Shown here: positions 3,810 to 35,054 of the stretch, in pieces
Position numbering within the stretch: position 1 is the stretch's first letter
Layout: each line of letters starts with the position of its first letter
Sequence record: OM735461.1
Source: Escherichia phage BUCT618
Length of the DNA stretch: 38,270 bases
Direction: 5' to 3' (one strand)
Position numbers and translations under genes: made by a program
The notes under the pieces: model-generated
Told to the model about the DNA's origin: nothing
Database searches by the model: none
Seen by the model: the letters and a program-made list of their open reading frames with translations, nothing else

Positions 3810-3971
3810 CATTATATTGATGATTCTCAATCACTGCTCTGCGTGGGGGTGTGGGTGAGAGTCATCGAGGCCTCGCCTCCACCCTGTCCCGTAAAGCAGG
3901 GTTTGAGGTTATCATATTTTTTTTATAAAGTCAATAGATGAGAGGCAAAAAACAAAGTATAAAATTAGTGT

Positions 3972-4000
3972 TTGACATAATCACACCAGGCGGGTAGATT
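3972..4000 (+). promoter_or_regulatory. Candidate early promoter
   Basis: TTGACA, 17-bp spacer, TAGATT; the first ORF starts at 4026 with AGGAG RBS. Shares the 15-mer TAGTGTTTGACATAA with the promoter at 32286. Confidence 0.5.
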
Positions 4001-4025
4001 TACTGAAAACAACAGGAGAAACGAA

Positions 4026-4265
4026 ATGACCAACGAATCAATGAAAGAGTACGAAGAAATCCAGCAGCGCCTTATGGATGAGTTCATTAACAACATCTCA
4101 CCGTGGATTGACTGGGTTGGCATGTCTGGTTTTGAAGAAACAATGGCCCGCTCTGCAGTTCGCAGCCTTATCAGCCTTTCTTATTATGAAGGCACGATGA
4201 ATGGCATTCGTGTCATGCAGCAGAATATGAAGGAGTTCCATGATGATGCAATGCGTGACCGTTGA
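4026..4265 (+). CDS. Hypothetical protein (79 aa)
   Basis: First ORF after the promoter, with RBS. Confidence 0.5.
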   Translation: MTNESMKEYEEIQQRLMDEFINNISPWIDWVGMSGFEETMARSAVRSLISLSYYEGTMNGIRVMQQNMKEFHDDAMRDR

Positions 4266-4277
4266 GGTGGCGAGGGT

Positions 4278-4460
4278 ATGAGACTTTATCAGTGCTACAG
4301 ATGCGGAGAATCGAAAGACTGGTATCGGTTCAACCCTGGCCAGAAGTATTGGGCAAGGCAGTGCATCAGATGTGAAATAACACCAGCCGGAATGATGCCG
4401 GTCCCGCAAGAAAGTGAGCACAGGTTCAGGTGCAAAAAGATTAAAAAGGTGTGCAAATGA
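4278..4460 (+). CDS. Small zinc-ribbon protein (60 aa)
   Basis: CYRCG ... CIRC cysteine pairs. Confidence 0.5.
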   Translation: MRLYQCYRCGESKDWYRFNPGQKYWARQCIRCEITPAGMMPVPQESEHRFRCKKIKKVCK

Positions 4461-4741
4461 AAAGCAGCAGAGAGCAGTTTGAGGAGTGGATTTACAAAAA
4501 TAGGATGCGAGGAGTGCCGTTTGATATTGAAGTTTTCGATGTCGACGGGGCAATTTTCTACAAATCGACAGAAACGCAAGGTCAATGGAATGCATGGCAG
4601 GCCAGCCGTGCGGCGATTGAGATTGAATTGCCAGACAAACTCATGGTTGAAGATGAGTTCGACAATGGGCATAACTGCGCAATCGACTACTGCGCTGATT
4701 CCATCCGTTCCGCTGGCATTACAGTAAAAGGTGATGCATGA
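4457..4741 (+). CDS. Hypothetical protein
   Basis: ATG at 4457 overlaps the upstream stop (ORF track begins at GTG 4451). Confidence 0.5.
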   Translation: MKSSREQFEEWIYKNRMRGVPFDIEVFDVDGAIFYKSTETQGQWNAWQASRAAIEIELPDKLMVEDEFDNGHNCAIDYCADSIRSAGITVKGDA

Positions 4742-4974
4742 ACATCTTCTCAATAATCAATATGGCGCAGGCCGCCAACCCGAAGGCAGAAGTCACCATC
4801 CGCAGCGGTGGTCATGATGCCATCATCATAACCTGGTATTGGGATGGCCAGTACCTGAACCGCAGCTATTGCAAGGCTCGAATGACCGGTCATCGCTTAG
4901 GCGAATATGAGGCGTGGAGAATTGCGTTCAATGCGGTTGCTCAGATTATGGGAGTCGTGGGGTGTGCGAAATGA
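4738..4974 (+). CDS. Hypothetical protein (78 aa)
   Basis: ATGA overlap with the neighbouring genes suggests translational coupling. Confidence 0.45.
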   Translation: MNIFSIINMAQAANPKAEVTIRSGGHDAIIITWYWDGQYLNRSYCKARMTGHRLGEYEAWRIAFNAVAQIMGVVGCAK

Positions 4975-5654
4975 TTATCTGGTCACTATTTGACGGTTCA
5001 GGTCTTATGGTCAAGCCGTGGGCGGAAGCAGGACATACTTGCTATTGTTTCAACTACGACGGAGCTGACCACGGTGACTACGCACGATTGGGCGCAAAAG
5101 TTGAACATGAAAATATCCACTATATAAACGCGTGGATTGATAATAAATTCGACTTCGACGTTGCGCCGGATATTATTTTCGCGTTCCCTCCGTGCACAGA
5201 CTTAGCCGTTAGCGGCGCGTCTCATTTCGAAACGAAGCGTAAGAAGAATGCAACGTTTCAGGTAGAGGCCGTGATTACATGTAAAGTGGCGGCTCGTCTG
5301 GCTAAAAGGTACAACGTACCTTATATGATTGAGAACCCGGTTAGCGTTCTTTCGTCTTTATGGCGCAAGCCTGACTACTCGTTCAATCCGTACGAATACG
5401 GCGGCTATTTACCCGAAGACGACACGCATCCAATGTTCCCTGAATACATAAAACCACGTGACGCATACCCTAAGAAGACATGTATTTGGGCCGGTAACGG
5501 TTTTGTCATGCCTGTTAAATCATGCGTTGCCGTCGGTGACGGGTACTCAAACCAACACAATAAATTAGGCGGTAAATCAGTGAGGACAAAAACAATCCGC
5601 AGCCTGACCCCGCGCGGATTTGCCCGTGCGGTATTTGAGGCTAACAAAGGTTGA
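4971..5654 (+). CDS. DNA cytosine-5 methyltransferase (compact)
   Basis: Motif I LFDGSG, catalytic PC motif FPPCTDLAVSG, ENV-like MIENP. Start placed at ATG 4971 (ATGA overlap) rather than the ORF-track start 4914. Confidence 0.65.
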   Translation: MIIWSLFDGSGLMVKPWAEAGHTCYCFNYDGADHGDYARLGAKVEHENIHYINAWIDNKFDFDVAPDIIFAFPPCTDLAVSGASHFETKRKKNATFQVEAVITCKVAARLAKRYNVPYMIENPVSVLSSLWRKPDYSFNPYEYGGYLPEDDTHPMFPEYIKPRDAYPKKTCIWAGNGFVMPVKSCVAVGDGYSNQHNKLGGKSVRTKTIRSLTPRGFARAVFEANKG

Positions 5655-5709
5655 CCCATCTATAACAGGGCGGGATGATAGCCGCCCCATTTACCTGGAA
5701 TAAATCATC

Positions 5710-7314
5710 ATGGCAGAAGAACAAATAAACAGCCTCGTCAACCTGGCGGCTGAACAGTCACTTATCGGCGGCGTACTGATACTCGGGTTCGATGCAGATT
5801 TTCGTGAGCGCACTGATTACGTTTTCCAGAACGTGCGGGAATCTGATTTCTATGCCGCATCACACCGCATTATCTGGCGTGAAATCTGTGCGATGACCGA
5901 CAAGGCAAAGTCGGTGGATGTGATTACCCTGTTCGACATTATCGAAAGCAAGGGTATGGGTGAAAAGATAGGCGGGTTCGCGTACCTGTCAGAAATAGCC
6001 AAAGGAACGCCCAGCGCCGCAAACATCAATGCCTATGCTGATATTGTGGTTGAGCGTGCAAATGCGCGTGAAGTTCTGCGCCGGATGAATGCCGCCCGTG
6101 AAATCATTACCAAAGAGGACGGTCGTTCGCTGGCTATCCGACTGGCAGAAGCAAGTGACATCACCGCAGGCATCGACAACATATCAGCGGGCCGTATGCT
6201 GTTCAATCCTGTCGATGTGATCGCCTCGCAGCTGGAGACCATTGATGAAGACTATTCCCTTATCGAGAAGATTTTCAATGAATGTATTAAGCACAAAGAT
6301 ATTACTCTGCTTACTGGCGCTGGCGGTACGGGTAAATCCTGGCTCACCATCAAACTTGGCATTTCTGTCGCGCTCGGGCGTCCCGCACTTGGCGGGAAAT
6401 ACAATTTCCTCACTCCCGTGGAGCAGGGGGTGGTGGTCTTCCTGATTGGCGAGGATAGTGTCGATGATTACCGGCATCGCCTGGACAAGCTAATTAAGGC
6501 GGCTGGCATGACCCGTGATGAAAAGGCGCGGATTCTTTCGTCAATCCTGTTCGTTCCACTACGTGATAAGGATATTCGTCTGATTAAGCGCGAGCGTGGT
6601 GGCGACCTGGAGCAGACCGGCGTTATCCGCAATCTTGCAGCATCACTGAAGGCATGTAACTGCCGTCTTGCCATTCTTGACCCGATGAACAAATTCGCCA
6701 GCGGTGAGGAGAACAGTAACAACGAGGCAAACGTATTTATAAACGCTGTGCGGCGCGTGGTTGATTTATCTGGCTCGGCAGTGCTTATGGTCCACCACTC
6801 ATCAAAAACCGACCCTGGAGGCTCGCGCGGGGCTTCTGCGCTGGTGGATGGTGCGCGTTGTCATCTTGCACTGGCAACAATGTCGCAGCTTAAAGGCGAG
6901 AAGGCAGAGGCTGGTGATGATGACATCATTCGCCTGACCATGCCGAAGCATAACAACTTCAAAGGGTGGGACGGACCGGTATGGCTCAAGCGAAGTGACG
7001 CTGGCGATATGCTGACGATTGACCCGCCAGAGATGATTGGTACAGGCGCTATAGCCAAGCGCTTCCATGTGGATACGACGCGCGTTAAATCGCTCATCAT
7101 TGAATGTATCCGCAGCAACTCCAGACCGACAAGCACCAGCGAGTTTATCAACGCGTTTATAGAAGGACCGGGTAAAGAGCTGTGCCCTAACTACGGCAAG
7201 GCAAAGGATATTATCGGCGAGATGCTTAACGACGGCATCCTGGAAGAAGGCACGATGTTCAATCGCAAAGTGTTGCTGGTCGCTGAGCGCGAGAATGATA
7301 ATTTTACCTGGTGA
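5710..7314 (+). CDS. Replicative DNA helicase (DnaB N-terminal-like domain plus RecA-fold AAA_25/RepA-like ATPase)
   Basis: N-terminus EQSLIGGVLILG; Walker A LLTGAGGTGKSWL; Walker B region AILDP; LMVHHSSK. Confidence 0.7.
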   Translation: MAEEQINSLVNLAAEQSLIGGVLILGFDADFRERTDYVFQNVRESDFYAASHRIIWREICAMTDKAKSVDVITLFDIIESKGMGEKIGGFAYLSEIAKGTPSAANINAYADIVVERANAREVLRRMNAAREIITKEDGRSLAIRLAEASDITAGIDNISAGRMLFNPVDVIASQLETIDEDYSLIEKIFNECIKHKDITLLTGAGGTGKSWLTIKLGISVALGRPALGGKYNFLTPVEQGVVVFLIGEDSVDDYRHRLDKLIKAAGMTRDEKARILSSILFVPLRDKDIRLIKRERGGDLEQTGVIRNLAASLKACNCRLAILDPMNKFASGEENSNNEANVFINAVRRVVDLSGSAVLMVHHSSKTDPGGSRGASALVDGARCHLALATMSQLKGEKAEAGDDDIIRLTMPKHNNFKGWDGPVWLKRSDAGDMLTIDPPEMIGTGAIAKRFHVDTTRVKSLIIECIRSNSRPTSTSEFINAFIEGPGKELCPNYGKAKDIIGEMLNDGILEEGTMFNRKVLLVAERENDNFTW

Positions 7315-7320
7315 TTGTGG

Positions 7321-7348
7321 TTGACATTATTCAGTGAAGTGGTAAGGT
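7321..7348 (+). promoter_or_regulatory. Candidate promoter upstream of the SF2 helicase
   Basis: TTGACA, 16-bp spacer, TAAGGT; shares TGTGGTTGACATTA with the site at 35020. Confidence 0.4.
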
Positions 7349-7376
7349 TTAAACGGAATTTTAGCGGGAGCAAAAT

Positions 7377-9143
7377 ATGAAGCAGCCACGATTTTACCAA
7401 ACAGAAGCAAAGGAGGCGGTGATTCACCGCATCCGTGAGAACTCGAAGAAAGGAGTCGCCAGCAGGATACTTGTTGATGCGGCGGCTGGTGCAGGGAAAA
7501 CCATCATGATGGCGATCATTGCCAAACACGTACATGAGCGAGGAGGGCGAGTATTGCAGATTGCGCGTCAGCCAATACTTGCCGAGCAGACCTATCGTGA
7601 GTTCTATGATTTTTCAGTACCGGCGGGGATGTACGCCGCAAAGTTCAATAAGCGCCAGGTATATCAGGTTACCGTAGGCACTGAGGGCACGATTGTTAAT
7701 GGCCTTGCTGACTTCAATAAACCGGTTGATTTGCTTCTTATCGACGAATCGCATCAGGTAGACATTGAGAACGAAGACACGCAATTCATGCGCATAATCA
7801 ATCATCTGGATGGAGTTTCGAAAAAAGCCGGTCGCCTTATGCATATCGTAGGAGTAACAGGTTCTCCATTCCGTGGAACCGCCCACCTTACCACGTTCGA
7901 CTTCTGGCAGGAGGTTGTTTACGACATCGGCGTCGACCGACTGACTGAGATGGGGTTCCTGTCGGTTCCCGTCTATGGGTTCCCTGATGCTGACGATGAC
8001 TCCCTGGATTTCTCCAGCGTGGATACTCGCAGCGGCTCATGGGAGTTCAGCGAAAAGGAACTCGACGAAATCGCCATGTCTGACGCTGGAAAGAAAAAAC
8101 TTGTGCGTATTCTGATGCAGGTCATTGAAAAGACCAAAGACCGGAACCAGCGGATAGTCTTTGCATCGACCAAGCGACACGCCAGGGAGATTCGGCGAAT
8201 CCTCATCGCACTGGGCATCGACAAGTCAAAGATTGGCCTTGTCACTGACGATTCCAGCGAGGCGGAGAAAGACCGCGTAATCAAGCTATCGAAGGAAGGA
8301 AAACTCGACTGGCTGATTAACGTGTCGGTGCTGACTACTGGCTTTAACTCGCCACTGATTGACGTGGTTGTTTACCTGCGCCCGATTGGTTCACTGGTGT
8401 TACTGATTCAGTCTATGGGGCGCGGCGCTCGCTTGCTTGAGGAGTGGATGAAAGAGGCCGGTTTCCATAAAGATAACTATCTGGTTCTGGACTATGCCGG
8501 AGTATTCGACAGGCTTGGGCATTTGCTGGACGACCCGCTTACAGGTGCGGCACTAGCGGAAAAAGGGCGCAAGTCAGGGAAAACAAAGTTATGCCAGCGT
8601 GAAGGTTGCGGGTGCGAAAACGGAATAGGCGCTCGGCGCTGTATCGCAAAGGATCCATCAGAACCTGATGGAAGGTGCTCGTTCTTCTGGGTTTCGCAAA
8701 CATGCCCAGACTGCGGAACAGAAAACGATATAGCAGCTTCTGAGTGCCGCAATCCGAAGTGCAAGCGTGAACTGCGTGACCCTAACAAAGAGCTTTTGCA
8801 TTCCCCATATTCTGATGACCAGCTTGTTGAGGTTAAATCATGGGAGATTACGCCAGCAGAAAACGGAAATGGCATCATGGTTAAGTTCAATCTTAAGGAT
8901 GAGCCAGAGCACGGCAACCCGGTTGTTTTTTATCCCACCGATAGCGAAGGGGCTAAGCGAATAACAATGAAACAGTTCATTGAGGTCTACTGCAGGAATC
9001 CTCGATGGCATCCAGAGTTTAAAGCGCAATTAAATCCACGTGGAATCATGAAATTAAAGCAGGCGTTAACCATGCCATCGCATATCTCTTACCGGATTAA
9101 CGGGCAAAACAAATTTGTTATCGGAAGAAGGCGCTTCTCATGA
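7377..9143 (+). CDS. Superfamily 2 DNA helicase with C-terminal cysteine-rich zinc-finger region
   Basis: Walker A DAAAGAGKT, DESH box LLLIDESHQV, motif III TGSPFR, motif VI QSMGRGAR; several C-x2-C pairs in the C-terminal third. Confidence 0.8.
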   Translation: MKQPRFYQTEAKEAVIHRIRENSKKGVASRILVDAAAGAGKTIMMAIIAKHVHERGGRVLQIARQPILAEQTYREFYDFSVPAGMYAAKFNKRQVYQVTVGTEGTIVNGLADFNKPVDLLLIDESHQVDIENEDTQFMRIINHLDGVSKKAGRLMHIVGVTGSPFRGTAHLTTFDFWQEVVYDIGVDRLTEMGFLSVPVYGFPDADDDSLDFSSVDTRSGSWEFSEKELDEIAMSDAGKKKLVRILMQVIEKTKDRNQRIVFASTKRHAREIRRILIALGIDKSKIGLVTDDSSEAEKDRVIKLSKEGKLDWLINVSVLTTGFNSPLIDVVVYLRPIGSLVLLIQSMGRGARLLEEWMKEAGFHKDNYLVLDYAGVFDRLGHLLDDPLTGAALAEKGRKSGKTKLCQREGCGCENGIGARRCIAKDPSEPDGRCSFFWVSQTCPDCGTENDIAASECRNPKCKRELRDPNKELLHSPYSDDQLVEVKSWEITPAENGNGIMVKFNLKDEPEHGNPVVFYPTDSEGAKRITMKQFIEVYCRNPRWHPEFKAQLNPRGIMKLKQALTMPSHISYRINGQNKFVIGRRRFS

Positions 9144-9556
9144 TAGTCAAAAAGCAGCACGCAGATGGTTATTTTATTTACTGGGATGATGAGGCAAAGG
9201 GAGATTGTCGCCTTGAGGTATCAGAGCAGATTGACGCGATGGCCTGGCTGAAGGAGTTTTACCCTGATGCCAGAAAGGTGACGTTTCATGTGCCCAACGA
9301 GAGCGATTCTAAGCCTCAGCACAGGGCTTCACTTCAACAGCAAGGGGTAACGTCAGGTGTTAGCGACATTGTCACGCTGTGGGGCACTGGCGCGGTTTTT
9401 GAGATGAAGCGAGCCGTCAGGTCGAAGTCATCAGTTAGCAAAGAGCAGAGGGAGTTTCTGAGGCTGTCCCATCAGCAAGGGAAGTTTGCCGCATTGTGCT
9501 ACGGCGCATCAGCTTTTAAGCGGGCATGGGTTGACTATCTCGCCTCTTTTGTTTAA
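9140..9556 (+). CDS. VRR-NUC domain nuclease
   Basis: HVPNE ... G ... EMK ... Q..F pattern typical of VRR-NUC. Confidence 0.65.
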   Translation: MIVKKQHADGYFIYWDDEAKGDCRLEVSEQIDAMAWLKEFYPDARKVTFHVPNESDSKPQHRASLQQQGVTSGVSDIVTLWGTGAVFEMKRAVRSKSSVSKEQREFLRLSHQQGKFAALCYGASAFKRAWVDYLASFV

Positions 9557-9558
9557 GG

Positions 9559-9568
9559 TTGACATAAT
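9559..9568 (+). promoter_or_regulatory. TTGACATAAT motif copy; function uncertain
   Basis: Too close to the ATG at 9587 to act as a -35 element; could be an extended -10 (TGaCATAAT) or a regulator site. Confidence 0.3.
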
Positions 9569-9586
9569 ATCAGAAGGAGAACTGAA

Positions 9587-9796
9587 ATGACCCGCGAAGA
9601 ATTTATCCAGAGAAACATCAAGAAGATTTTAATCAGCGAAGGTTTCAGCCATGAGGCGGCGGAGGTTGGCGCAGATGCGGCGCTCGATTTGTATCTGAGA
9701 AAGTCAGACTTCCCGAATGGAAAGGCTTTCGACTTCTGCCTGATGAACGCCCGTCGTGAAGCCAAGATGAAGCAGTCAGCAATGAGGATTAAATAA
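9587..9796 (+). CDS. Hypothetical protein (69 aa)
   Basis: ORF with AGGAG RBS. Confidence 0.45.
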   Translation: MTREEFIQRNIKKILISEGFSHEAAEVGADAALDLYLRKSDFPNGKAFDFCLMNARREAKMKQSAMRIK

Positions 9797-10746
9797 TGAC
9801 CACAACACTACTTCCGGCGCTCGTACCGGCGCAACAATTCCTGATGGCACAGGAACAACAGTTTCAGGCCGTGCTTTCAGATGACCGTATTAACTTTGCG
9901 AAAGAATGCCAGTTCGCGTTGCAGCACCTGAGCAACAATGATTTTACCCGCCAGGTGGCGATGAAGAATCAGGAATCATTCCGCAACGCAATTATCAATG
10001 TGGCAGCTATAGGCATCAGCCTTAACCCGGCCGCAAAACTGGCTTACCTTGTTCCACGCAAAGGCTCAGTTTGCCTGGATATCGGATACCTGGGGCTTGA
10101 GCATCTTGCGATTGAATCCGGATCCGTGCTATGGGTGCAGACTAAGCTGGTGCACGCCAATGACACCTACGTTAACACCGGCATCAATACCGCGCCAGAG
10201 CATCAGTATTCTGCATTCGGCAAGCGCGGCGATATCGTCGGCTGTTACTGCGTGGCCAAAGTTCATGACGGTTCATTCCTTACCGAAGAGATGAGCATTG
10301 AGGAAATCCACCGCATTCGCGGGCGCTCAGAGTCATTCTCAAAAGGAGGTATGTCGCCGTGGAAAACAGACGAAGGCGAGATGATTCGCAAAACGGTTAT
10401 CAAGCGAGCGGCAAAGCACTGGCCCAAAAAAGCACGACTTGATGCAGCTATCGACATGCTTAACCGTCAGGGTGAGGGAATCGACTTCCAGCGTGAGCGT
10501 GCGCCAGTGCGCGAGAAGGCAATCAACCCGGCAACCGAAGAGCAGGTGAAGACAATCCGTGAAGGTCTGGAGTTTATCAGCCGACCTGAAGAGGCATTCC
10601 TGAAATACTTCTCTGGCAGCATTGCTAAGCGTGTTATTGAGTCCATTGAGGAGTTGACCGAGGAAGAGGCAATTAAGGCTATCAGCACCATTCAGTCAAT
10701 CATGGATAAGCAGGCAGAGAAGCAATCAAACAGAGAGGTATTCTGA
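9796..10746 (+). CDS. recT: RecT-family single-strand annealing recombinase
   Basis: LNPAAKLAYLVPRKG and WKTDEGEMIRKTVIKR regions typical of RecT. Confidence 0.8.
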   Translation: MTTTLLPALVPAQQFLMAQEQQFQAVLSDDRINFAKECQFALQHLSNNDFTRQVAMKNQESFRNAIINVAAIGISLNPAAKLAYLVPRKGSVCLDIGYLGLEHLAIESGSVLWVQTKLVHANDTYVNTGINTAPEHQYSAFGKRGDIVGCYCVAKVHDGSFLTEEMSIEEIHRIRGRSESFSKGGMSPWKTDEGEMIRKTVIKRAAKHWPKKARLDAAIDMLNRQGEGIDFQRERAPVREKAINPATEEQVKTIREGLEFISRPEEAFLKYFSGSIAKRVIESIEELTEEEAIKAISTIQSIMDKQAEKQSNREVF

Positions 10747-11429
10747 TGTTAATCGATGAACTACGCACGCGCCTGTCTGCATTCAATGACATATTCGGAT
10801 TTGACTGCGTTACCGTTGAGCAGAGGTCATACCAATGGCACATGATGCGCCTCGGAGTGATAACAGCGTCCGGCATTGACGCAATACTTGCCAAGCCAGG
10901 TAGCGCCACTCGTGATGGGTACATGGCAACACTAATTGCCGAGATTGCAACCGGAGCGCCAGCAGATCCGGTAAGCGCTAAAACACTGCAATGGGGTATT
11001 GACCACGAACCGGCAGCTATTGAAGCATACTCATTCATGACCGGCAATGTAGTAGAGCAAATCCCGTTCGTGTACCGTGATGAAACCATGCGCTGCGGTT
11101 GCTCGCCGGATGGGGTGATGGATGATTTTACTCTTGAGATAAAATGCCCATACATGAGCCGACGACACATTGAGCTGATTGTGGATGGACGCATGGACAA
11201 AGACTACATGGCGCAGACGCAATTCCAGATGTGGGTAATGGGGACGGATAAGGTGGACTTTCACAGCCATGACCCCCGTATGCTGAAACATACGGATCAC
11301 ACCGTAACGGTAGAGCGCTCAGACCTGTTCATGAAGAAATTCGACGATGCTATCCCGCAATTCATCATGGAGATGGATGCCAAACTGGAGCGACTTGGAT
11401 TCAGGTTCGGGGAGCAATTTAAAGCATGA
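10746..11429 (+). CDS. YqaJ-type (lambda-exonuclease-like) recombination exonuclease
   Basis: YQWHMMRLGVITASGI N-terminal signature; paired with recT by an overlapping stop/start. Confidence 0.8.
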   Translation: MLIDELRTRLSAFNDIFGFDCVTVEQRSYQWHMMRLGVITASGIDAILAKPGSATRDGYMATLIAEIATGAPADPVSAKTLQWGIDHEPAAIEAYSFMTGNVVEQIPFVYRDETMRCGCSPDGVMDDFTLEIKCPYMSRRHIELIVDGRMDKDYMAQTQFQMWVMGTDKVDFHSHDPRMLKHTDHTVTVERSDLFMKKFDDAIPQFIMEMDAKLERLGFRFGEQFKA

Positions 11430-12809: not shown

Positions 12810-12820
12810 GCGATCACCTC

Positions 12821-26379: not shown

Positions 26380-26392
26380 TTATAATCCCCTG

Positions 26393-26866: not shown

Positions 26867-28137
26867 TATGCTTTCCCCGCGTAGAATTTAGCGTTATATG
26901 CGGCCTGACCAGACTCTTCGCGAGAGTTGAACATGCCATCAAGATTCAGACCCTGGCGCTGAGTGCGCAGGCTGTCGGTGCGATTCTTCAGGCCATCTAC
27001 TGCGGCATCGAATCGACCGCTGATATAGGCATCGGACTTGCCATCAGCATTGAAGCCGGATTTTGCGGCAATGAGCGCCTCAACCTGGATTTCGCGAGCA
27101 GTTTTCACGCGCTTGCCATCCATGTGGCTGATGCCCGGTTTCAGTTTTTTGGCATCCTCGATGATTCGCAGCATTTTGCTGAGGGAGTCGGTTTTCTGCT
27201 CCGGGTCGGTGTCGGTGTCTTCATCCACCTTATCCGGGCATTCTTCATCCATTAAGGAATCAGGAGTGTCGCCGCTTACCGCGTCAGCCAGCTCATCCAG
27301 CTGAGCCTGAAGGGTGTCTACCGCTTCGGAAACGCTGGCTACTGCGTTTTCTACCGCCGGAACATCGACTTCCACCACTTCCTTGTTCTCGTCGTCGGCA
27401 TCTTTAATGATGTCGTCAGCGTCTAGCTTAAGTTTTGGAGCGATGGCTTTTACCAGCTTTTTCAGCTGACCTGTAGCGGAATCAAGGCGCTTGCCCTGCT
27501 TCGCCAGCGCCGCGTTGATGGTCGCTGCCGTAGCTGCATCTGCAACTTCAACAGTGCCGCCGCCGGGCAGTTTGATTTGAGTCATTGATTTCTCCTCGTT
27601 ATTCGGCACATGTGCGCCATCAAAACGCAGTGAACAGATTGAGCCACCTCGCGCGGCATCCACGATGGCCTGATGGTTATAGCGCCGATTGCGCTGGACA
27701 CGGTCATACTTCTGGCCCTGCCATTCGCCCGGCGTTTCATCAAGGTCAACGGAATAACCCGGAGAAAGCTCAGTTACACCGCCGTATTCTACAGCATGTA
27801 AAGCCTCGTTGCCAATTACCAGCATTGACGCAACAAGATTGTCACCATCACGCTTTGGCATCCCGTTAACGCTGCCCTGTGAATACTGTTTGTAATTGGA
27901 TGGCGTAACCATTTCAGGTGGGTGCTGCAAAGTCACCGGAGCGCCAGCCAGGGACTTCAGCGATTCCTCATCAAACAGCGTCTCCTCTGGCACAAATTCA
28001 CGGATAATCGTGCCATCATCTTCCATATACTCAAGAATGCCGACATGAGCCACCACGCCATCAATGCGCAGGTATCCGTTTTCGTCAATCTTTGAGGTGA
28101 TTCTACCGCCTTTGTCGATGCGATAATCTTTTTTCAT
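26866..28137 (-). CDS. Putative prohead scaffold / protease-like protein
   Basis: N-terminal globular domain followed by a long acidic coiled-coil region; position between head morphogenesis and capsid genes. Confidence 0.5.
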   Translation of the reverse strand: MKKDYRIDKGGRITSKIDENGYLRIDGVVAHVGILEYMEDDGTIIREFVPEETLFDEESLKSLAGAPVTLQHPPEMVTPSNYKQYSQGSVNGMPKRDGDNLVASMLVIGNEALHAVEYGGVTELSPGYSVDLDETPGEWQGQKYDRVQRNRRYNHQAIVDAARGGSICSLRFDGAHVPNNEEKSMTQIKLPGGGTVEVADAATAATINAALAKQGKRLDSATGQLKKLVKAIAPKLKLDADDIIKDADDENKEVVEVDVPAVENAVASVSEAVDTLQAQLDELADAVSGDTPDSLMDEECPDKVDEDTDTDPEQKTDSLSKMLRIIEDAKKLKPGISHMDGKRVKTAREIQVEALIAAKSGFNADGKSDAYISGRFDAAVDGLKNRTDSLRTQRQGLNLDGMFNSREESGQAAYNAKFYAGKA

Positions 28138-28145
28138 TTTTTACC

Positions 28146-28991
28146 TCAGAACTCAATTACATTACTTGCGTAGCAGCGGCAGTTTATTGCCTGCCCTGGA
28201 AAAGTATCGCGAGCACCAGCACCATCTGACCAGTTATACGTCTTGCCGTTACGCGCATAGTGCGATGGTTTGGCTTTCGGGTATCGGCCTGATGGGTTTC
28301 CTCGCACCCGCTGGTCTTCCATCGTGCGCCATACGAATTGCTTGATTTCCAGGTCTGCCGCACGTTGCTTTGTTACCTGCATATTCATAGTGGCGACCTG
28401 GTCACGGGCAATCAGGTCGGCGCGTCGTTTAGCAACCCCGGTTTCGGCCCGAATGTTTTTGCTGATGTCGCGCCATGACAGGCCATCGCGAAATCCAGAG
28501 TTAACGGCAGTTGTAATCTTGCTCAGGTAGCTTTGCGTCAGATTGGTAATCAGCGCAGTATTTTCCTCAGCCCATGCGTCAATATTTGCGCTCATGTCAG
28601 TTCCTGGCAATGCCACGTTGACGCCAATGGCCTGGTTGATTGCTTTCTGCCAGTTACCATCAATTGCCGAACGAATAGAATCGCCAATGTTGCGCACGAA
28701 TGACAGTCCCGGAATATTACCCGTTGCCAGTGAGCGAATAGCTCGCAGAACAGCAGACAGGTCATCAACCCGATAACCATCCTCACGCGCCGCAATCTCT
28801 GCTTTTAATTCATCAGCGATGCGGGTTTTCAGCTCGGCATTAATGCCGTCAATGATGCCGCGCAGCATCTTCGCGTACTGCTGTTCAATCCGTACAGGGT
28901 GACGGGCTGGCAGCAGAACCTTACGCTTCCGCTTGTCAGGCTTCAGTGCTTCCAGTTGTTTCTGAAATTCCGTTTGTGCCATTTTCGCCAC
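28146..28991 (-). CDS. Head morphogenesis protein (Mu F / SPP1 gp7 family)
   Basis: C-terminal FVWRTMEDQRVRGNP ... GQAINCRCY signature. Confidence 0.75.
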   Translation of the reverse strand: MAKMAQTEFQKQLEALKPDKRKRKVLLPARHPVRIEQQYAKMLRGIIDGINAELKTRIADELKAEIAAREDGYRVDDLSAVLRAIRSLATGNIPGLSFVRNIGDSIRSAIDGNWQKAINQAIGVNVALPGTDMSANIDAWAEENTALITNLTQSYLSKITTAVNSGFRDGLSWRDISKNIRAETGVAKRRADLIARDQVATMNMQVTKQRAADLEIKQFVWRTMEDQRVRGNPSGRYPKAKPSHYARNGKTYNWSDGAGARDTFPGQAINCRCYASNVIEF

Positions 28992-30303
28992 CGAGTGAGT
29001 TAAGACCTAACGGATCCTGTTCTTCTTCATCCTCCGGCAATTCTTCCAGCGAGAACAGGCCAGTATCGTTGGCCAGATTGCGCACCTCGTTAGGCGTGAG
29101 CGCAGCAGATTGCTCAAGCGTTGAAATTGCCGTCGCTACCGATGCCATCGAGGTTGCTTTCTTGTCTGGTGACATCGCACTAAGTTCTGCCCACCGCCAG
29201 TCGAAGTCCAGTCCGGTCTGCATCTTCACGTTATCAATGCATGACTGCACCAGCGCAGACGGATCGCCTTCCTGAATCGCGGCAATCTTGTCGTAGTAAA
29301 CCGACAGGATTTCCTCCTGGCTGGCATTCAGCCCTGCAGGAGATTTCCCGAACAGCATCATTTCGGAAAGGCCAGTCGCGCCAGCTACCGCAGTGGCAAA
29401 GCGGTCAACGAAGTCGGGGATTCCCTGGAGTGATCGGTTAACGAACTCGAATGACTCTTCCTTATCGACAACCGCCGCCCGGTAGATTGACTTACCCTGG
29501 TTGAAGGCGTTTGCACGGTTCATTACTGCCTGCGATGCCGTCATCCCCATTGATTGCGCAGCTGTCAGGTTAGGCACGGAAAGAATGCCAACCCCTGACT
29601 CTTTCAGCAGGAATGAAGCATCCTGTAATGTCTCGTTGTATGCGGCAATTGCCGACCATGCCATCGCAACATAAGAGCCACCCCATCCCTGCAGTTCAAT
29701 CTGGGTATCGTAAGGAACCGGGCAGCCATAGAAAGGCGCAATGCGGTCGCGGTGATACGTCACGCCGTTGCGAGCCACATAATTCAGTGCACGCCCATAA
29801 TGCGGGGACTCAGGGTCAAGGTCGATTTCATCAACACTTAATGACCAGCGGTCGAGCGGCACCAGGTCAATGATGGCCGCCGTTTCTGATGGGGGTGATT
29901 CTGGCGGGCGAGAATCGTCGTAAACCTTCAGCACGCCAGCACCACCGAACAGGCGTGACCAGGCGATACCCTTGCGAACTGCCGCGCGCAGACCAATCTC
30001 ATCAAGCATGGTTTCAACGCGCTTTTTGTCCTCACCATCCAGACCGGTGATTTCGATAAACTTGCGTGTCGCATCCTCTGCGGGGAGGTCGCAGATTTTA
30101 CGCGCCAGCCAGTCCGACAAATAGATGTTAGTCAGCACCTGCTGATTGTTGTGCATCAGGTGCGCAAATGCAGGAGACAGAACTTGCCCGAGGCTCTTGT
30201 CGATGCCAGGAATACCCTGCCCGGATATTGGGTTAGCCCACGCATCAACGCGGTAAGACATGCTGCCGTCATTATGCAGCTTGAGGTGGGGCTTCTTAGC
30301 CAT
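28936..30303 (-). CDS. Portal protein
   Basis: 455 aa immediately upstream of the Mu F-like gene; acidic C-terminal tail; RBS GAGGG. Confidence 0.65.
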   Translation of the reverse strand: MAKKPHLKLHNDGSMSYRVDAWANPISGQGIPGIDKSLGQVLSPAFAHLMHNNQQVLTNIYLSDWLARKICDLPAEDATRKFIEITGLDGEDKKRVETMLDEIGLRAAVRKGIAWSRLFGGAGVLKVYDDSRPPESPPSETAAIIDLVPLDRWSLSVDEIDLDPESPHYGRALNYVARNGVTYHRDRIAPFYGCPVPYDTQIELQGWGGSYVAMAWSAIAAYNETLQDASFLLKESGVGILSVPNLTAAQSMGMTASQAVMNRANAFNQGKSIYRAAVVDKEESFEFVNRSLQGIPDFVDRFATAVAGATGLSEMMLFGKSPAGLNASQEEILSVYYDKIAAIQEGDPSALVQSCIDNVKMQTGLDFDWRWAELSAMSPDKKATSMASVATAISTLEQSAALTPNEVRNLANDTGLFSLEELPEDEEEQDPLGLNSLGGENGTNGISETTGSTEA

Positions 30304-30355
30304 TATCAGTCCCTCATGAAAATTAACGTCAGTATATCACGGAGGATTGGATAAG

Positions 30356-30382
30356 AAAAAACCCGCCGAAGCGGGTCTTTTT
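30356..30382 (-). terminator. Rho-independent terminator (bidirectional shape) between the tRNA and portal gene
   Basis: ACCCGC-cgaa-GCGGGT hairpin flanked by A run and T run. Confidence 0.6.
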
Positions 30383-30386
30383 GATT

Positions 30387-30463
30387 TGGCGCACACGGAC
30401 GGATTTGAACCTTCAATCAGCCGATTATAAGTCGGTTGCTTTAACCAATTAAGCTACGCATGC
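30387..30463 (-). tRNA. tRNA, 77 nt, anticodon UAU (would read AUA, Ile)
   Basis: Hand-folded cloverleaf: 7-bp acceptor stem with two G-U pairs, D loop AATTGGTTA, anticodon loop CUUAUAA, T loop TTCAAAT, discriminator G, encoded CCA. One mismatch each in the anticodon and T stems. Confidence 0.65.
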
Positions 30464-30498
30464 GAAATTTGCTGGTTTAAGCATTGCCAGCGTGCTTT

Positions 30499-30564
30499 CT
30501 TAATATCCAGCCCCGTAACCCATACATACCCCTACATATGATTGCGATAACGCTGGATATTAAG
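30499..30564. repeat. Perfect 13-bp inverted repeat with 40-nt spacer
   Basis: CTTAATATCCAGC at 30499-30511 and GCTGGATATTAAG at 30552-30564. Confidence 0.6.
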
Positions 30565-30818
30565 TGTTGCGGCGTTTCGCGATTAACTGAAACTGGCATA
30601 ACAATGGATGCAACCCTATCAAAATAATCAATTTGGCATTACCACAACGGCAAGAGCACTGCATGGTTTTACCATTACATCCGAAGATTTATCTGGTGTA
30701 GTCAATGCCCTTGCCTGTTGTGTGCCGGTTACGCGTCCGGCGTCAACCAAGTTGACCGATTCACAGACACAACGGGAGCAACGTTGTGATGTAAGTATCA
30801 CCCAATCTGATTATCGTG

Positions 30819-31263: not shown

Positions 31264-31488
31264 TTATCCAGCGGTCGAATCATCTTTCTTCTCCCTCACG
31301 GCAATCAGCTTGTTAACGGAGTTGCCAGCAACGACGACGGCGAGGTAAATGCCGAACATATCTGTCGTCAGCGTGTTCTGATATGCCTGCCAGACGATGA
31401 CGCCTGACGCAATCATGACGCCGATGAACTGGCATGTTTTTGACAGAGAAAAGTCGCCGACTGGCGAGGTTAGCAGGTCTTTAAGCAT
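31264..31488 (-). CDS. Holin (two predicted transmembrane segments)
   Basis: 74 aa with two hydrophobic helices and a charged C-terminus; sits between endolysin and spanins. Confidence 0.5.
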   Translation of the reverse strand: MLKDLLTSPVGDFSLSKTCQFIGVMIASGVIVWQAYQNTLTTDMFGIYLAVVVAGNSVNKLIAVREKKDDSTAG

Positions 31489-31556
31489 CGGTTCCCCAGA
31501 ATAGCGCGACCAGGATTAGCACTACTGTAGCACCAATACAGACCTCGACCAAATAA

Positions 31557-32105
31557 TCAAAGGGAAATGCGATTGGCAATCCAGCCATATGCGAAAGCCT
31601 CGTTATCCTGACGGCCTTCCGCCAGCTCAATATACCGCGCACCCTGGAGGCAGTTCAGTGCCTTGAGCATCACAGTTTCACCTTGCTTGCCGCGCAACCC
31701 CAGATAGCTTTTAAGGGCTGAAGCAGTAGCAGGGCCAACCTTTCCGTCGACAGCAATATCAGCGTATGTCTTGCCCTGGTTGTTAAAGGCGTTCAGGCAG
31801 CGCTGAAGGAACTTTCCCGCCACTGATGGCCCCATGTTAACCCCTGTATCAACCACTTTGGCAGCGATGGATTCAGACAGCGGAATAAGCAGGTCAAACT
31901 TTGGCTTCGATACGTATTGAGTGTAGTAGATGTTTTCGGCAAGTGAGATGGGGAGGTCTTTCATTGCGCCGGTGTAACCATTGGCAACAGCTACCGACTT
32001 TGTAATGCCGTACATCGTTTCGCCGCCGGAGTCGTTTGGGTTATTTGAGTAACCACCTTCGACTTTGATGATGTCGTCAATAATTGACTTTACAGCCGGG
32101 GTCAT
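31557..32105 (-). CDS. Endolysin (GH108-type muramidase with PG_binding_3-like C-terminal domain)
   Basis: N-terminal IIDDIIKVEGGYSNNPNDSGGETMYGIT is the GH108 hallmark. Confidence 0.8.
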   Translation of the reverse strand: MTPAVKSIIDDIIKVEGGYSNNPNDSGGETMYGITKSVAVANGYTGAMKDLPISLAENIYYTQYVSKPKFDLLIPLSESIAAKVVDTGVNMGPSVAGKFLQRCLNAFNNQGKTYADIAVDGKVGPATASALKSYLGLRGKQGETVMLKALNCLQGARYIELAEGRQDNEAFAYGWIANRISL

Positions 32106-32285: not shown

Positions 32286-32313
32286 TTGACATAAGGCATA
32301 GATGCGGTAAGAT
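32286..32313 (+). promoter_or_regulatory. Candidate early promoter for the right-hand plus-strand block
   Basis: TTGACA, 16-bp spacer, TAAGAT; shares TAGTGTTTGACATAA with the promoter at 3972. Confidence 0.5.
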
Positions 32314-32343: not shown

Positions 32344-32649
32344 ATGAAAGAGTTTAAAGGTACGCCTGGGCCGTGGGTTGCAGATAAGACATCTCGCGCG
32401 ATAGGCCCAATTAGCCATGATGATGACCAGTCTTACGGAATTTTAATTCCTGTTGCCTGGGTGGAGTTTGACCAAGATGAGGGGATTAAGGCGTCAAACC
32501 AACGCCTCATCGCTGCAGCGCCTGAGTTGCTGGAGGCCTTGAAGAAAATGGTCAGCAAAGCGTATAAGCAAAACTGGAATGATGCATACCCAGAAGAGAT
32601 TCAATCAGCACAGGCAGCAATCAACAAAGCACTGGGAGAAAAACAATGA
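32344..32649 (+). CDS. Hypothetical protein (101 aa)
   Basis: First ORF after the promoter. Confidence 0.5.
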   Translation: MKEFKGTPGPWVADKTSRAIGPISHDDDQSYGILIPVAWVEFDQDEGIKASNQRLIAAAPELLEALKKMVSKAYKQNWNDAYPEEIQSAQAAINKALGEKQ

Positions 32650-33527
32650 AACTTATCGACTTGCTGGTTAAAGAGTTACCGCAGTGGGGCGGGTGGCCTG
32701 AAGGTGCGATAAATGCTACACAAGATAAAGATGGGGTGGTGAATTTCTATGAAGGTGCAACACCTGTATTTGCCTCGGTCGCCTGGCTTGGTGGTGACTG
32801 GTGCGGAAATGAGTTTAACACAATTACGGCCAGCGACTACGACACCGCCATTGTCACCCGAGAACAATACGAATCCGCGCTCGCAGCCAGTAAAGCCGTT
32901 GTTGGCCATGACGGATGGATTCAATGGGCTGGCGGTGAGTGCCCGGTTGATAGTGACGCAATTGTTGAAGTCAAATACCGAAATCCGAGCCGGAACAAAT
33001 TCAATAATGATCGTGCTGGCGATTTTACCTGGTCACATGATGGATTTGGCGGTGACATCATCGCCTACCGCCTGCAACAGCCGACGAAATCAGAACAGGC
33101 TTGCGATGACGCTGCGGAAGCTGATGACGAAGCAGACCTGAACGAGTGCATTGGTCAGGATATTGATATTCCGGAATGGAATGGTGAAGGGTTGCCGCCA
33201 GTTGGCACTATCTGCCAGGCCAAAGTCCCGCGCTCAATTACTGGGTGGGAATGGCGAAGGGTGAAGGTTGTCGAGTCTGGCATCCCAGGCGCAGAGAAAG
33301 AGGTGCTTGTTTATGACCTGGAGACAACAATCCCATCATGGGCAGATGAATTCCGACCACTCCGCACCGAAGCGGAAAAGGCGCGTGAGAAATTGGCCGC
33401 GTCGCTTCATATTGCGGCTGGCGCCAGTCCAATCGAATTAAACGGCATAGGGACTTTATACTTCAAGCTGGCTGATGCCATCATTTCAGGAAGCGTTTTC
33501 GGAACTACATTCAAGGCGGGTAAATAA
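32646..33527 (+). CDS. Hypothetical protein (293 aa)
   Basis: ATGA overlap with the upstream gene. Confidence 0.5.
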   Translation: MKLIDLLVKELPQWGGWPEGAINATQDKDGVVNFYEGATPVFASVAWLGGDWCGNEFNTITASDYDTAIVTREQYESALAASKAVVGHDGWIQWAGGECPVDSDAIVEVKYRNPSRNKFNNDRAGDFTWSHDGFGGDIIAYRLQQPTKSEQACDDAAEADDEADLNECIGQDIDIPEWNGEGLPPVGTICQAKVPRSITGWEWRRVKVVESGIPGAEKEVLVYDLETTIPSWADEFRPLRTEAEKAREKLAASLHIAAGASPIELNGIGTLYFKLADAIISGSVFGTTFKAGK

Positions 33528-33751
33528 TGGATATTGACGTAGTTAACCATCCATCGCACTACACTAAGGGCAGAATCGAGTGCATTGATGCCATTGATTC
33601 AGCCACCACCGGAAAATCAGGAATCGAAGCCGTATGCGTGGCAAATATCATTCGTTACCTGTGGCGCTACGAAGAAAAAGGTGGCCTTGAAAGTGTAAGG
33701 AAGGCGCAGTGGTATCTTAACAAATTAATCTCTGAACTGGAGTCAAAATAA
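33527..33751 (+). CDS. DUF3310-like phage protein
   Basis: [16 protein letters not shown] ... [13 protein letters not shown] ... [10 protein letters not shown]. Confidence 0.55.
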
Positions 33752-34275
33752 TGGCATCGAGAGGCGTTAACCGTGTAACAATCCTGGGCAACCTCGGCAA
33801 TGACCCGGATGTAAAATACACCGCATCAGGAAGCGCAATCGCAAACCTGACGGTGGCAACATCTGAGTCATGGAATGACAAGGCAACCGGTGAGAAGAAG
33901 GATTTGACCGAATGGCATCGCGTCGTGCTGTTCGGCAAACTGGCAGAGGTGGCAGGTGAATACCTCCGAAAAGGTTCGCAAGTCTATATTGAAGGCCAGC
34001 TTCGAACCCGCAAATGGACCGACCAATCCGGCCAGGAGAAATACACCACAGAGATTGTTGTCGGCATGAATGGGGTGATGCAGATGATTGGCGGAAAGCA
34101 GGATAGCAAGCCTCAGCAACAAAGCGGATGTGGGCAGCCTCAACAACCAAAGCCGCAGCAGCAGAGCAAGCCAGCACCAGCCGGGCATAATGTTCCTCCA
34201 GTGGACTTTTCTGACGACATTCCGTTCGCTACCATTGGTTTGCAGTACGGGAAATCGAGAATCTACGCCCTATAA
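33751..34275 (+). CDS. ssb: Single-stranded DNA-binding protein with C-terminal extension
   Basis: OB-fold N-terminus ([16 protein letters not shown] ... [13 protein letters not shown]), Gln/Pro-rich linker, DFSDDIPF tip, then 15 further residues before the stop. Confidence 0.85.
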
Positions 34276-34293
34276 TTATCACCATATCAACCA

Positions 34294-34314
34294 ACCCGCT
34301 ACGGCGGGTTTTTC
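34294..34314 (+). terminator. Rho-independent terminator after ssb
   Basis: ACCCGC-tacg-GCGGGT hairpin followed by TTTTT. Confidence 0.6.
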
Positions 34315-34331
34315 ATCTTTTACGCAATCTG

Positions 34332-34360
34332 TTACAATTTCAAGATTGTTCCAGTATATT
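34332..34360 (+). promoter_or_regulatory. Candidate promoter
   Basis: TTACAA, 17-bp spacer, TATATT, about 50 nt upstream of the ATG at 34409. Confidence 0.4.
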
Positions 34361-34408
34361 CACTCAAAGGCAGGCGTGTACCCTAAGGAAAGAAGAAAGG
34401 GGGTGCAT

Positions 34409-34726
34409 ATGCCAAACAGGATGAACATGTCTACAGTCGAAGAGCGGCTAACGAAAGTTGAGACGAATCTTGCGAACCTTGCAGATGCACAAAGGGATGT
34501 TAGCCAGGCTTTAAACAAGGTGTCTGAGTCCATCCACGCCATCCAGATTAGCATTGAGCGCCAGAACGCGAGTATTCATCAGATAGTTGAGTTGCGTCGT
34601 GATGTTGATGCAATGTCGAAGGATGTGGATAAGCTAAAAGGCAAGGTGTGGTGGTTAGGCGGCGTGGCAGCCGCCTGTACTTTCATTATCGTGAACTTCT
34701 CGCGCATGAAAGACTTCTTTCACTGA
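34409..34726 (+). CDS. Coiled-coil protein with C-terminal transmembrane anchor (XhlA-like architecture)
   Basis: Start placed at ATG 34409 after a purine-rich RBS; the ORF-track upstream extension is unlikely to be coding. Confidence 0.5.
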   Translation: MPNRMNMSTVEERLTKVETNLANLADAQRDVSQALNKVSESIHAIQISIERQNASIHQIVELRRDVDAMSKDVDKLKGKVWWLGGVAAACTFIIVNFSRMKDFFH

Positions 34727-34849
34727 TGCGGATTATATCCATGTCGCGCATGGTTGCATGACGTGCGCGGGCGAAGTAGTATCGCGCGAATGTGAATCCA
34801 TAGCGGCGCAATCCGCCAGCAAATCCCCACCGTTCAATCAGCCACCATT

Positions 34850-34981
34850 TCATTTCATCCTCCCCAGATAGAAGCATACTCCCGCCGCACTGAGATATAT
34901 TGCCGCTGAAATATCGCGGTTGATAGCTGCCGAGAATATTGCCGACAGCACCAGGAAAAGCATTGGCATCCACTTGATCAT
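34850..34981 (-). CDS. Small hydrophobic protein (43 aa), divergent from the 35027 promoter
   Basis: ATG with GAGGGG RBS 7 nt upstream; MIKWMPMLFLVLSAIFSAAINRDISAAIYLSAAGVCFYLGRMK. Confidence 0.3.
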   Translation of the reverse strand: MIKWMPMLFLVLSAIFSAAINRDISAAIYLSAAGVCFYLGRMK

Positions 34982-35026
34982 TTTTTTACCCCTCATCATA
35001 TTTCGCCTCAAATCCACAGATTGTGG

Positions 35027-35054
35027 TTGACATTACCATGATACATGGTAACCT
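35027..35054 (+). promoter_or_regulatory. Candidate promoter with overlapping palindromic operator
   Basis: TTGACA at 35027-35032; palindrome TTACCATG-ATA-CATGGTAA at 35033-35051 covers the spacer and -10 region. Confidence 0.4.

Follow-up and report, generated by a model that had tools for sequence, protein, structure and literature searches.

The recurring TTGACAT(A/T)A word of Escherichia phage BUCT618, a probable -35 element of host-type promoters

Introduction

Escherichia phage BUCT618, analyzed here as a window of 38,270 bases (the whole stretch of sequence record OM735461.1), carries the word TTGACAT(A/T)A (hereafter TTGACATWA, W being A or T) in several gaps between its genes, which raises the question of whether all of its copies are promoter elements or whether some of them serve another purpose. 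An earlier reading of the sequence, hereafter the original prediction, took four copies for -35 elements of sigma70-type promoters and considered the other two, at 9559 and 19859, to be extended -10 elements or sites for a phage regulator. We hold with good confidence that the word is the consensus sigma70 -35 hexamer, TTGACA, followed by T-N-A, and that (i) four copies belong to complete host-type promoters, (ii) an ancestral internal promoter has left its -35 at 9559, and (iii) the copy at 19859 is, most likely, not a + strand element but sequence complementary to a minus-strand promoter's start and leader.

Results

Enrichment of TTGACATWA in non-coding DNA

TTGACATWA occurs exactly six times in the window, always on the + strand (starts 3972, 7321, 9559, 19859, 32286, and 35027), and all six copies lie in non-coding DNA, as originally claimed. 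Among 100 dinucleotide-preserving shuffles, the mean count was 0.79 and the maximum 3, with none reaching six. Non-coding DNA makes up 5.0% of the window when every listed open reading frame (ORF) is counted, and 8.4% when four dubious ORFs are removed; the probability that six random positions would all be non-coding is 1.5e-8 to 3.5e-7, and only 0.04 copies are expected on both strands of the ∼2.9 kb of non-coding DNA. Moreover, when the k-mers of the non-coding DNA were counted without bias, TTGACAT words ranked first, with nothing else prominent, and six of the seven TTGACAT occurrences in the window are non-coding. Longer identity within two pairs of copies is likewise real, with corrected coordinates: the shared 15-mer TAGTGTTTGACATAA begins at positions 3966 and 32280 rather than 3967 and 32281, and TGTGGTTGACATTA starts at 7316 and 35022 (not 35020), inside a shared 17-nt stretch, GATTGTGGTTGACATTA, at 7313 and 35019.

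Four copies with the anatomy of complete promoters

All six copies match the -35 hexamer at 6/6 positions, and the copies are told apart by what follows. A -10 hexamer at 16-18 bp downstream, with A at its second and T at its sixth position, is found for the copies at 3972, 7321, 32286, and 35027 (Table 1), but not for those at 9559 (TGAAAT at 18, without the A) and 19859 (GGAGGG/GAGGGG). The TGn extension stands on the two weakest -10 hexamers, those of P7321 and P35027. In all four promoters, the motif starts 53-58 nt before an ATG that has a GGAG-type Shine-Dalgarno sequence, and the -10 lies 25-30 nt before that ATG, which implies a leader of ∼20 nt. Five of the six copies are co-oriented with, and upstream of, a gene with a ribosome-binding site; the copy at 19859 faces away from the local genes. 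The genes downstream are of early type, namely a DnaB-like helicase, a helicase, RecT, an exonuclease, SSB, a NinD-like protein, and methyltransferases. The description of the copies as heads of transcription units fits 3972, 32286, and 35027, which lie in divergent regions or after a terminator, but not 7321 and 9559, which are internal to a + strand block.

Conservation of the promoters in relatives

In relatives whose helicase is 74-98% identical to that of BUCT618 (individual relatives carry handles such as L001), each of the four promoters has a counterpart at the orthologous place. Variable columns, counted over four orthologous groups with 14 sequences in total, number 0/24 in the -35 hexamer and 3/24 in the -10 hexamer, as against 16/53 in the rest of the spacer, 10/44 in the upstream flank, and 19/43 in the downstream flank, and there is not one spacer indel among the 14 sequences. 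Hexamers and spacer length that are kept in an otherwise drifting spacer are the signature expected of functional -35/-10 promoters. For P3972, the L001 and L003 orthologues retain both hexamers and the TAA, with 8/14 of the other spacer columns variable; for P7321, TTGACAT.A is retained in five orthologous sequences together with the TGn and a spacing of 16 nt (L002 has C at position 8); for P32286, the hexamers and spacing are identical in L011; and for P35027, the L001, L003, and L012 orthologues retain TTGACAT.A, the TGG, and TAAYCT, with T, A, or G at position 8. Position 8 of the word accordingly takes all four bases among the orthologues (A, T, C in L002, and G in L012), T7 and A9 being invariant, so that the real word would be TTGACATnA. 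Further, in distant relatives (61-62% helicase identity), TTGACATAA is present at promoter-like sites (L004, 387 and 6030; L005, 4533). Promoter anatomy, position, orientation, and this pattern of conservation together support the proposal that the four copies are sigma70-type -35 elements, and we infer that RNA polymerase would initiate at all four sites, and early.

The copy at 9559 as a probable internal-promoter position

The 9559 copy precedes a 69-aa ORF, RecT, and the exonuclease gene, and its end lies 19 nt before ATG 9587, too near for a -35, as was pointed out in the original prediction. A TTGAC box is present at this junction in all six lineages examined. L006 has TTGACTCAA; L005 has TTGACATAA, with a flanking protein of 44% aa identity and a different downstream gene; L004 has TTGACGTTG; L002 and L003 have TTGACACTA-16-TATGAT, which would drive an inserted gene; and Yersinia phage PY100 has TTGACAAGT-17-TATAAT at 47189, just before recT. 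Read as an extended -10 element, the word as TGACATAAT matches TGnTATAAT at 8/9 positions at 3973, 9560, and 19860. At the 9559 site, however, TTGACTCAA of L006 (CTCAAT) has no -11 A and TTGACATAAA of L005 (CATAAA) has no -7 T, whereas the -35 likeness is kept in both. The persistence of TTGAC in all of these relatives, the full promoters of L002, L003, and PY100, and the L006 variant without a -11 A lend no support, for this copy, to the earlier proposal of an extended -10 element or a regulator site. We conclude from these comparisons that the site is a conserved internal-promoter position ahead of recombination genes, and the copy in BUCT618 is probably the -35 of an internal promoter that is weak or has decayed to a vestige.

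For the extra small gene that L002 and L003 carry at this junction (regions 3575-3640 and 12169-12230, respectively), the -10 of the TTGACACTA-16-TATGAT promoter is bracketed by a 9-bp inverted repeat, TTCTGATGA ... TCATCAGAA, which may be an operator.

The copy at 19859 as the complement of a predicted minus-strand start and leader

One base of the 19859 copy is shared with the minus-strand TGTTATAAT, in agreement with the geometry first described, and the copy occupies the discriminator, start-site, and leader region just downstream of the -10 of P(-)19875. TGTTATAAT is a perfect extended -10 (the promoter scores 10/12 plus TG in our scan), and the T-tract of the terminator at 19913-19896 supplies the weak -35, TTTTCA. 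On the minus strand, TGTTATAAT is followed by TATGTCAACCAAACACGGAGAC, 5 nt, and ATG 19839 of the tail chaperone gene, and then by the tape-measure gene. The same terminator closes a five-gene accessory ('moron'-like) cassette at 21382-19912 (-) inside the tail cluster, which includes a TM2/zinc-ribbon protein and a DUF551 protein and has a promoter of its own, TTGACACAA-16-TATAGT at 21378 (-), with a bidirectional terminator upstream (21398-21411). Because the terminator ends a cassette with its own promoter, P(-)19875 would be a restart promoter for the tail genes.

In 13 distinct relatives, the block CGTGTTATAATTATGTCAAC[C/A]AAACACGGAGA is invariant save for that one position, and there is variation in the stretch from the -35 into the spacer, in the 5 nt before the ATG, and in the terminator loop; the terminator stem shows compensatory changes. 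Since everything in the block is fixed, its conservation is uninformative for the + strand 9-mer. As a + strand -35, the 19859 copy would face GGAGGG/GAGGGG at 16-17 nt, which offers no usable -10 and lies in a stretch that is variable in the relatives. Leaders of the CAAC..ACACGGAG type are also found after P35027 (tatCAACACGGGAGG) and after P(-)21378 (tCAACACatAGGGAGG), and this common leader composition would partly explain a TTGACA complement at 19859. Most likely, the copy is not a + strand element; its sequence complements the start and leader of a minus-strand promoter, a strong one of extended -10 form.

In the relatives, the DNA on the cassette side, just past the terminator at 19896-19913, differs. 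A small + strand ORF after 19859 (MKKAPLGA) was rejected as a candidate, since by our reading it is not conserved in the relatives. Both atypical copies stand exactly 19 nt from a start codon, in opposite orientations: ATG 9587 (+) via 9568-9586, and ATG 19839 (-) via 19840-19858. With two cases only, this shared distance may be a coincidence.

Minus-strand TTGACAC boxes and an extended -10 class

The promoter-like TTGACA boxes of the minus strand all read TTGACAC (3809, 3253, 21378, 30822, and 30970); the base after TTGACA is T in all six + strand copies and mixed inside genes. As read from these sites, the hexamer is effectively TTGACAY, with a strand- or module-specific choice of Y.

A second predicted promoter class, (c)CGTGnTAnnnT, with weak -35 matches only, occupies minus-strand gaps before late/structural gene groups, and three of its sites lie directly behind a terminator T-tract. 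The candidate P(-)25155 (TGTTAAAAT) was rejected as a late promoter, an intrinsic terminator hairpin following it immediately. The leader after the extended -10 at 23352 (23308-23343, -) contains a perfect palindrome, GGCAAGTACTTGCC, in place of which the L007 orthologue has a different perfect palindrome, ATGCAATTGCAT; this swap suggests a conserved 5' stem-loop or operator before the sheath gene. The replication genes have perfect -35 and weak -10 elements, in contrast to the structural genes, with extended -10 and weak -35 elements. Speculatively, this contrast would suit a switch that acts on -35 recognition; no factor for it was found among the small ORFs scanned.

Table 1. TTGACATWA copies and predicted promoter elements in the 38,270-base window
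Feature	Position	Strand	Elements	Context
P3972	3972-4000	+	TTGACA (3972-3977), TAA, 17-nt spacer, -10 TAGATT (3995-4000)	A-rich stretch upstream; motif start to ATG 54 nt; first gene of 4026-7314 block
P7321	7321-7348	+	TTGACA, TTA, 16-nt spacer, extended -10 TGG-TAAGGT (7340-7348)	Internal promoter at DnaB-like helicase gene/helicase gene junction; ATG 7377, 56 nt from motif start
9559 copy	9559-9567	+	TTGACATAA	2 nt past stop of VRR-NUC-like gene; 19 nt before ATG 9587
19859 copy	19859-19867	+	TTGACATAA	Tail-gene region; minus strand reads TTATGTCAA
P32286	32286-32313	+	TTGACA, TAA, 16-nt spacer, -10 TAAGAT (32308-32313)	ATG 32344, 58 nt from motif start; block ends with SSB gene and terminator 34293-34310
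P35027	35027-35054	+	TTGACA, TTA, 16-nt spacer, extended -10 TGG-TAACCT (35046-35054)	ATG 35080, 53 nt from motif start; block reaches methyltransferase gene end, 38258
Terminator-promoter module	19867-19913	-	Terminator 19913-19896, TTTTCA, 17-nt spacer, TGTTATAAT (19875-19867)	
Extended -10, 14666	14658-14666	-	TGATATAAT	TG-TA-AAT positions kept in diverged relatives
Extended -10, 19875	19867-19875	-	TGTTATAAT	
Extended -10, 23352	23344-23352	-	TGATATTAT	
Extended -10, 30339	30331-30339	-	TGATATACT	
Extended -10, 34338	34330-34338	+	TGTTACAAT	Before coiled-coil/TM ORF 34409-34726
P(-)35066, divergent promoter candidate	35038-35066	-	TTGATA, 17 nt, TATCAT	Promoter scan 10/12

Genome layout and relatives

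The window appears to be a phage genome in full, circularly permuted. The packaging genes TerS and TerL (20-2999, -), a long block of Mu-like head and contractile-tail genes (11455-30303, -; portal, protease/scaffold, major head protein, sheath, tape measure, and baseplate), and the lysis genes (31264-32105, -) are on the minus strand. The two + strand blocks, 4026-11429 and 32344-38258, encode the DnaB-like helicase, the second helicase, the VRR-NUC-like protein, RecT, the exonuclease, SSB, the NinD-like protein, and the DNA methyltransferases. No RNA polymerase, sigma factor, integrase, or repressor gene was detected in the window, and the genome looks to be of lytic type.

The major capsid protein is 50% aa identical to its counterpart in PY100, a 'dwarf' myovirus (group described in PMC8309999 and PMC3391216). 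A megablast search of 50,697 phage records gave matches solely to a horizontally shared methyltransferase gene and to the tRNA region; no cultured phage among these records is related to the remainder of the genome at the DNA level. The relatives, of 38.3-41.2 kb, are known solely as IMG/VR and metagenome contigs, and a helicase search of the genome collection returned no relative and hence no clue to the host or to a prophage state.

The cytosine-C5 methyltransferase gene at 4961-5621 has 91-92% DNA identity to Kagunavirus-type Salmonella and E. coli siphoviruses, and, because the remainder of the genome is isolated at the DNA level, this identity points to a recent horizontal transfer and to an enterobacterial host. 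The large terminase (20-2389, -), at 789 aa, is much above the usual length; its PHROG match falls into two parts (residues 16-158 and 490-778), and a Pfam Intein_splicing match at residues 183-246 is sub-threshold (25.8 bits; cutoff 35.8), which makes an intein or homing-endonuclease insertion likely. A tRNA gene at 30387-30463 (-), upstream of the portal gene, is assigned to Ile with anticodon TAT by ARAGORN (Rfam tRNA model, 61 bits); a scan of the whole window with Rfam returned this tRNA only, and no RNA family at any TTGACATWA copy. Its surroundings (30379-30744, ∼365 nt) share 88-93% identity with DNA, for the most part without annotation, of many Salmonella and E. coli phages, one record of which annotates a tRNA-Met there. 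A promoter-like TTGACAC-17-GATACT at 30822 (-) lies 5' of the tRNA, and a terminator (30376-30361), followed by the extended -10 site at 30339, lies 3' of it.

Comparison with known promoters

Sigma70-type promoters of this kind have long been known from lambda, the T-odd phages, and many others, and classical E. coli promoter compilations show a weak preference for T after the hexamer. In lambda (J02459.1, 35564-35631), we confirmed TTGACATAA between the annotated operators OL2 and OL1, within the known early-operon promoter PL, used by the host sigma70 polymerase. PL resembles the sites described here in having the identical 9-mer, TTGACATAA, as its -35 region and an imperfect -10 at canonical spacing. 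It differs in being embedded in the CI/Cro operators OL1-OL3 of the lysogeny switch, whereas the BUCT618 boxes have no conserved flanking dyad operators and no repressor gene was detected in the window.

PY100 (L038), the nearest cultured relative, shares the gene order dnaB, helicase, VRR-NUC-like gene, recT, and exonuclease. Its predicted TTGACA(T/C) boxes also head gene blocks at syntenic places, that at 47189 corresponding to the 9559 site, and are followed by CA-rich, CATCRACAACA-like leaders. Unlike the BUCT618 copies, however, they are mostly TTGACATTG or TTGACAC rather than T-N-A, and by our reading of the sequence their -10 elements are near consensus and often lie between GC-rich inverted repeats (GCGGGGC...GCCCCGC). 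An A-tract-TTGACAY arrangement is common to promoter-like PY100 sites such as those at 4571, 7945(-), 18555, 42077, and 47189. The -10 at 47189 shares bases with the start codon annotated for recT, and the recT start may therefore be mis-annotated.

A phage-specific base bias after TTGACA has been described for other phages, among them the Pseudomonas phages pf16 (TTGACAC) and phiPMW (TTGACAA), with many intergenic boxes (PMC5587285); these differ from BUCT618 in host, lineage, and extension, and the promoters there are predictions as well. Extended -10 promoters (TGnTATAAT) are matched at 8/9 positions by TGACATAAT in three copies and perfectly by the neighboring TGTTATAAT, but at the 9559 site the comparative data (L006 TTGACTCAA, L005 TTGACATAAA) favor a -35 over a -10 identity for the word. 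A comparative paper on the phiPLPE group does not discuss promoters. The exact 19-mer GTGTTATAATTATGTCAAC has eight matches in the genome collection, all of them in unrelated metagenome-assembled genomes and mostly in Firmicutes promoter-like contexts; this is close to what chance would give (∼4 in 596 Gb by our own estimate), and the matches carry no information on the word.

Discussion

Several observations weigh against reading the word as a plain -35 element. In a generic promoter scan, P3972 and P32286 score 10/12, but P7321 and P35027 fall below its -10 threshold, their -10 hexamers matching at 3/6 positions only; moreover, the scan itself runs near background (30 vs 23.2 +/- 5.1 and 26 vs 18.8 +/- 4.8), so our case is built on context and conservation and not on the scan. 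The invariance of T7 and A9 is only weakly significant when judged from spacer variability (p about 0.04-0.06), and we know of no established sigma70 contact that accounts for these two bases. At 9559, there is no acceptable -10, the best candidate, TGAAAT at 18 nt, having no -11 A and overlapping the ATG. Finally, a second unexplained exact 9-mer, that at 19859, is unlikely by pure chance, ∼0.04 being expected in the non-coding DNA.

One alternative has the word used on both strands: GGTTGACAT(A/T)A would act on the + strand either as a -35 or, read as TGACATAAT, as an extended -10, and its complement, ATGTCAACC, would form the start-site box of a minus-strand promoter that points the opposite way. 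Binding of polymerase in one direction would prevent binding in the other, which would couple or time expression from both strands at 19859 and 35027. The basis for this idea is a recurrent geometry, in that at both sites T(A/T)ATGTCAACCA follows a good minus-strand -10 (TATAAT, TATCAT) at a distance of 0-2 nt. At 35027, the -10 is that of P(-)35066, a candidate that overlaps P35027 and reads TTGATA-17-TATTAT in the relatives by our own reading; its presumed genes are the small minus-strand ORFs 34850-34981 and 34686-34853, and its predicted leader opens with the 35027 motif in complement (TAATGTCAACC). Words resembling a minus-strand -10 also adjoin the copies at 9559 (TGATATTAT) and 7321 (AATAAT), TGACATAAT has its 8/9 match to TGnTATAAT in three copies, and bidirectional promoters with competition between orientations are documented in E. 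coli (bioRxiv 10.1101/2020.01.31.928960; PMC12825309). However, with CATAAT (19863-19868) on the + strand and TATAAT (19872-19867) on the minus strand, the two starts at 19859 would be ∼15 bp apart, outside the preferred bidirectional start spacings of 18, 23, 29, 12, 10, or 7 bp (bioRxiv 10.1101/2020.01.31.928960); 7321 and 9559 have no minus-strand gene to express; the divergent genes at 3972 and 32286 have separate promoters, 163 and 48 nt off by coordinate subtraction; and the L006 variant destroys the -10 reading at the 9559 site. On balance, we regard such use of both strands as unlikely. We give slightly less credence to its stronger form, in which TGGTTGACAT(A/T)A would be deliberately dual-purpose, as a rightward early -35 and as the start-site box of leftward extended -10 promoters (for tail genes at 19859 and small membrane-protein ORFs at 35027), with polymerase orientation acting as a protein-free or small-factor-assisted early/late toggle and T7 and A9 belonging to the opposite-strand promoter.

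Alternatively, the 9-mer might bind a phage or host regulator (a repressor, activator, or sigma appropriator) that coordinates the + strand units and also touches 9559 and 19859. Such a protein would give a reason for the conservation of T7 and A9 beyond the canonical hexamer and for two copies without a -10 partner, each exactly 19 nt from a start codon, and a switch that prevents recognition of the -35 would fit late genes whose promoters pair an extended -10 with a weak -35. Yet the motif is asymmetric, with no dyad and no repeated partner at a fixed spacing, its position 8 takes any base in the relatives, and a perfect sigma70 -35 already accounts for the conserved core. Pfam and PHROG scans of ∼20 small ORFs matched only NinD, DUF551, TM2, and VRR-NUC, and found no helix-turn-helix, Mor/C-type, Ogr-type, AsiA-like, or other DNA-binding family. 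An inverted-repeat operator search of the promoter regions returned a single match, a 76% palindrome with 17-nt arms at 35027 (35024-35060; TGGTTGACATTACCATG / CATGGTAACCTTATCCA), which is not kept in the spacers of the relatives (∼65% complementarity in L001 by our own count) and, being weaker there, is probably not an operator. A candidate CRP site at 3972, TGTTTGACATAATCACA, was also set aside, as its half-sites are, by our reading, 7 bp apart rather than 6 and it is absent from L001. A regulator is thus very unlikely in our judgment, and the two atypical copies are best explained without one. Mere common descent, by duplication or exchange of promoter cassettes at module junctions with no selection on bases 7-9 and with 9559 and 19859 as relics or coincidences, strikes us as the most improbable of all. 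It would draw on the 15 and 17 nt that the promoter pairs share around the box, on their similar -10 regions (GCGG(G)TA(A)GATTTA and TGGTAA..TT), on the variable DNA that borders the odd copies (the inserted gene of L002 and L003 at 9559, the accessory cassette at 19859), and on CAAC-rich leaders that raise the likelihood of a TTGACA complement at 19859. Against this, the boxes are intact where adjacent spacer bases diverge by ∼30%, and L005 has the exact 9-mer at the 9559 site despite 44% aa identity in the flanking gene; descent is, moreover, compatible with, and largely complementary to, the copies being functional promoters.

Returning to the -35 assignment, we propose that the host RNA polymerase holoenzyme would recognize TTGACA plus T-N-A. 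The four -35 boxes at 3972, 7321, 32286, and 35027, each separated by 16-17 bp from an imperfect -10 in which the -11 A and the -7 T are retained, would together fire the + strand blocks for replication, recombination, SSB, and DNA methylation. These would be the early or middle genes of a 'dwarf' myovirus that resembles PY100, is of lytic type, and has no RNA polymerase or sigma gene of its own. The 9559 copy would be the -35 of an ancestral internal promoter whose good -10 was lost, or was never present, in this genome, and P(-)19875 would restart tail-gene transcription behind the terminator.

This is an ordinary kind of promoter in a new phage lineage rather than a new kind of element, and it leaves the knowledge of transcription initiation as it was. 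Its outcome is a working transcription map for a lineage of ∼38-41 kb PY100-like myoviruses that has metagenomic relatives and no close cultured one. On this map, four consensus -35 promoters would lead into the replication, recombination, and methylation blocks; a separate extended -10 set, several of its members directly behind terminators, would lead into the structural genes; and accessory cassettes would carry their own promoter and terminator. Such a map may be of use for annotation, for the choice of strong compact promoters, and for the design of transcript mapping in this lineage.

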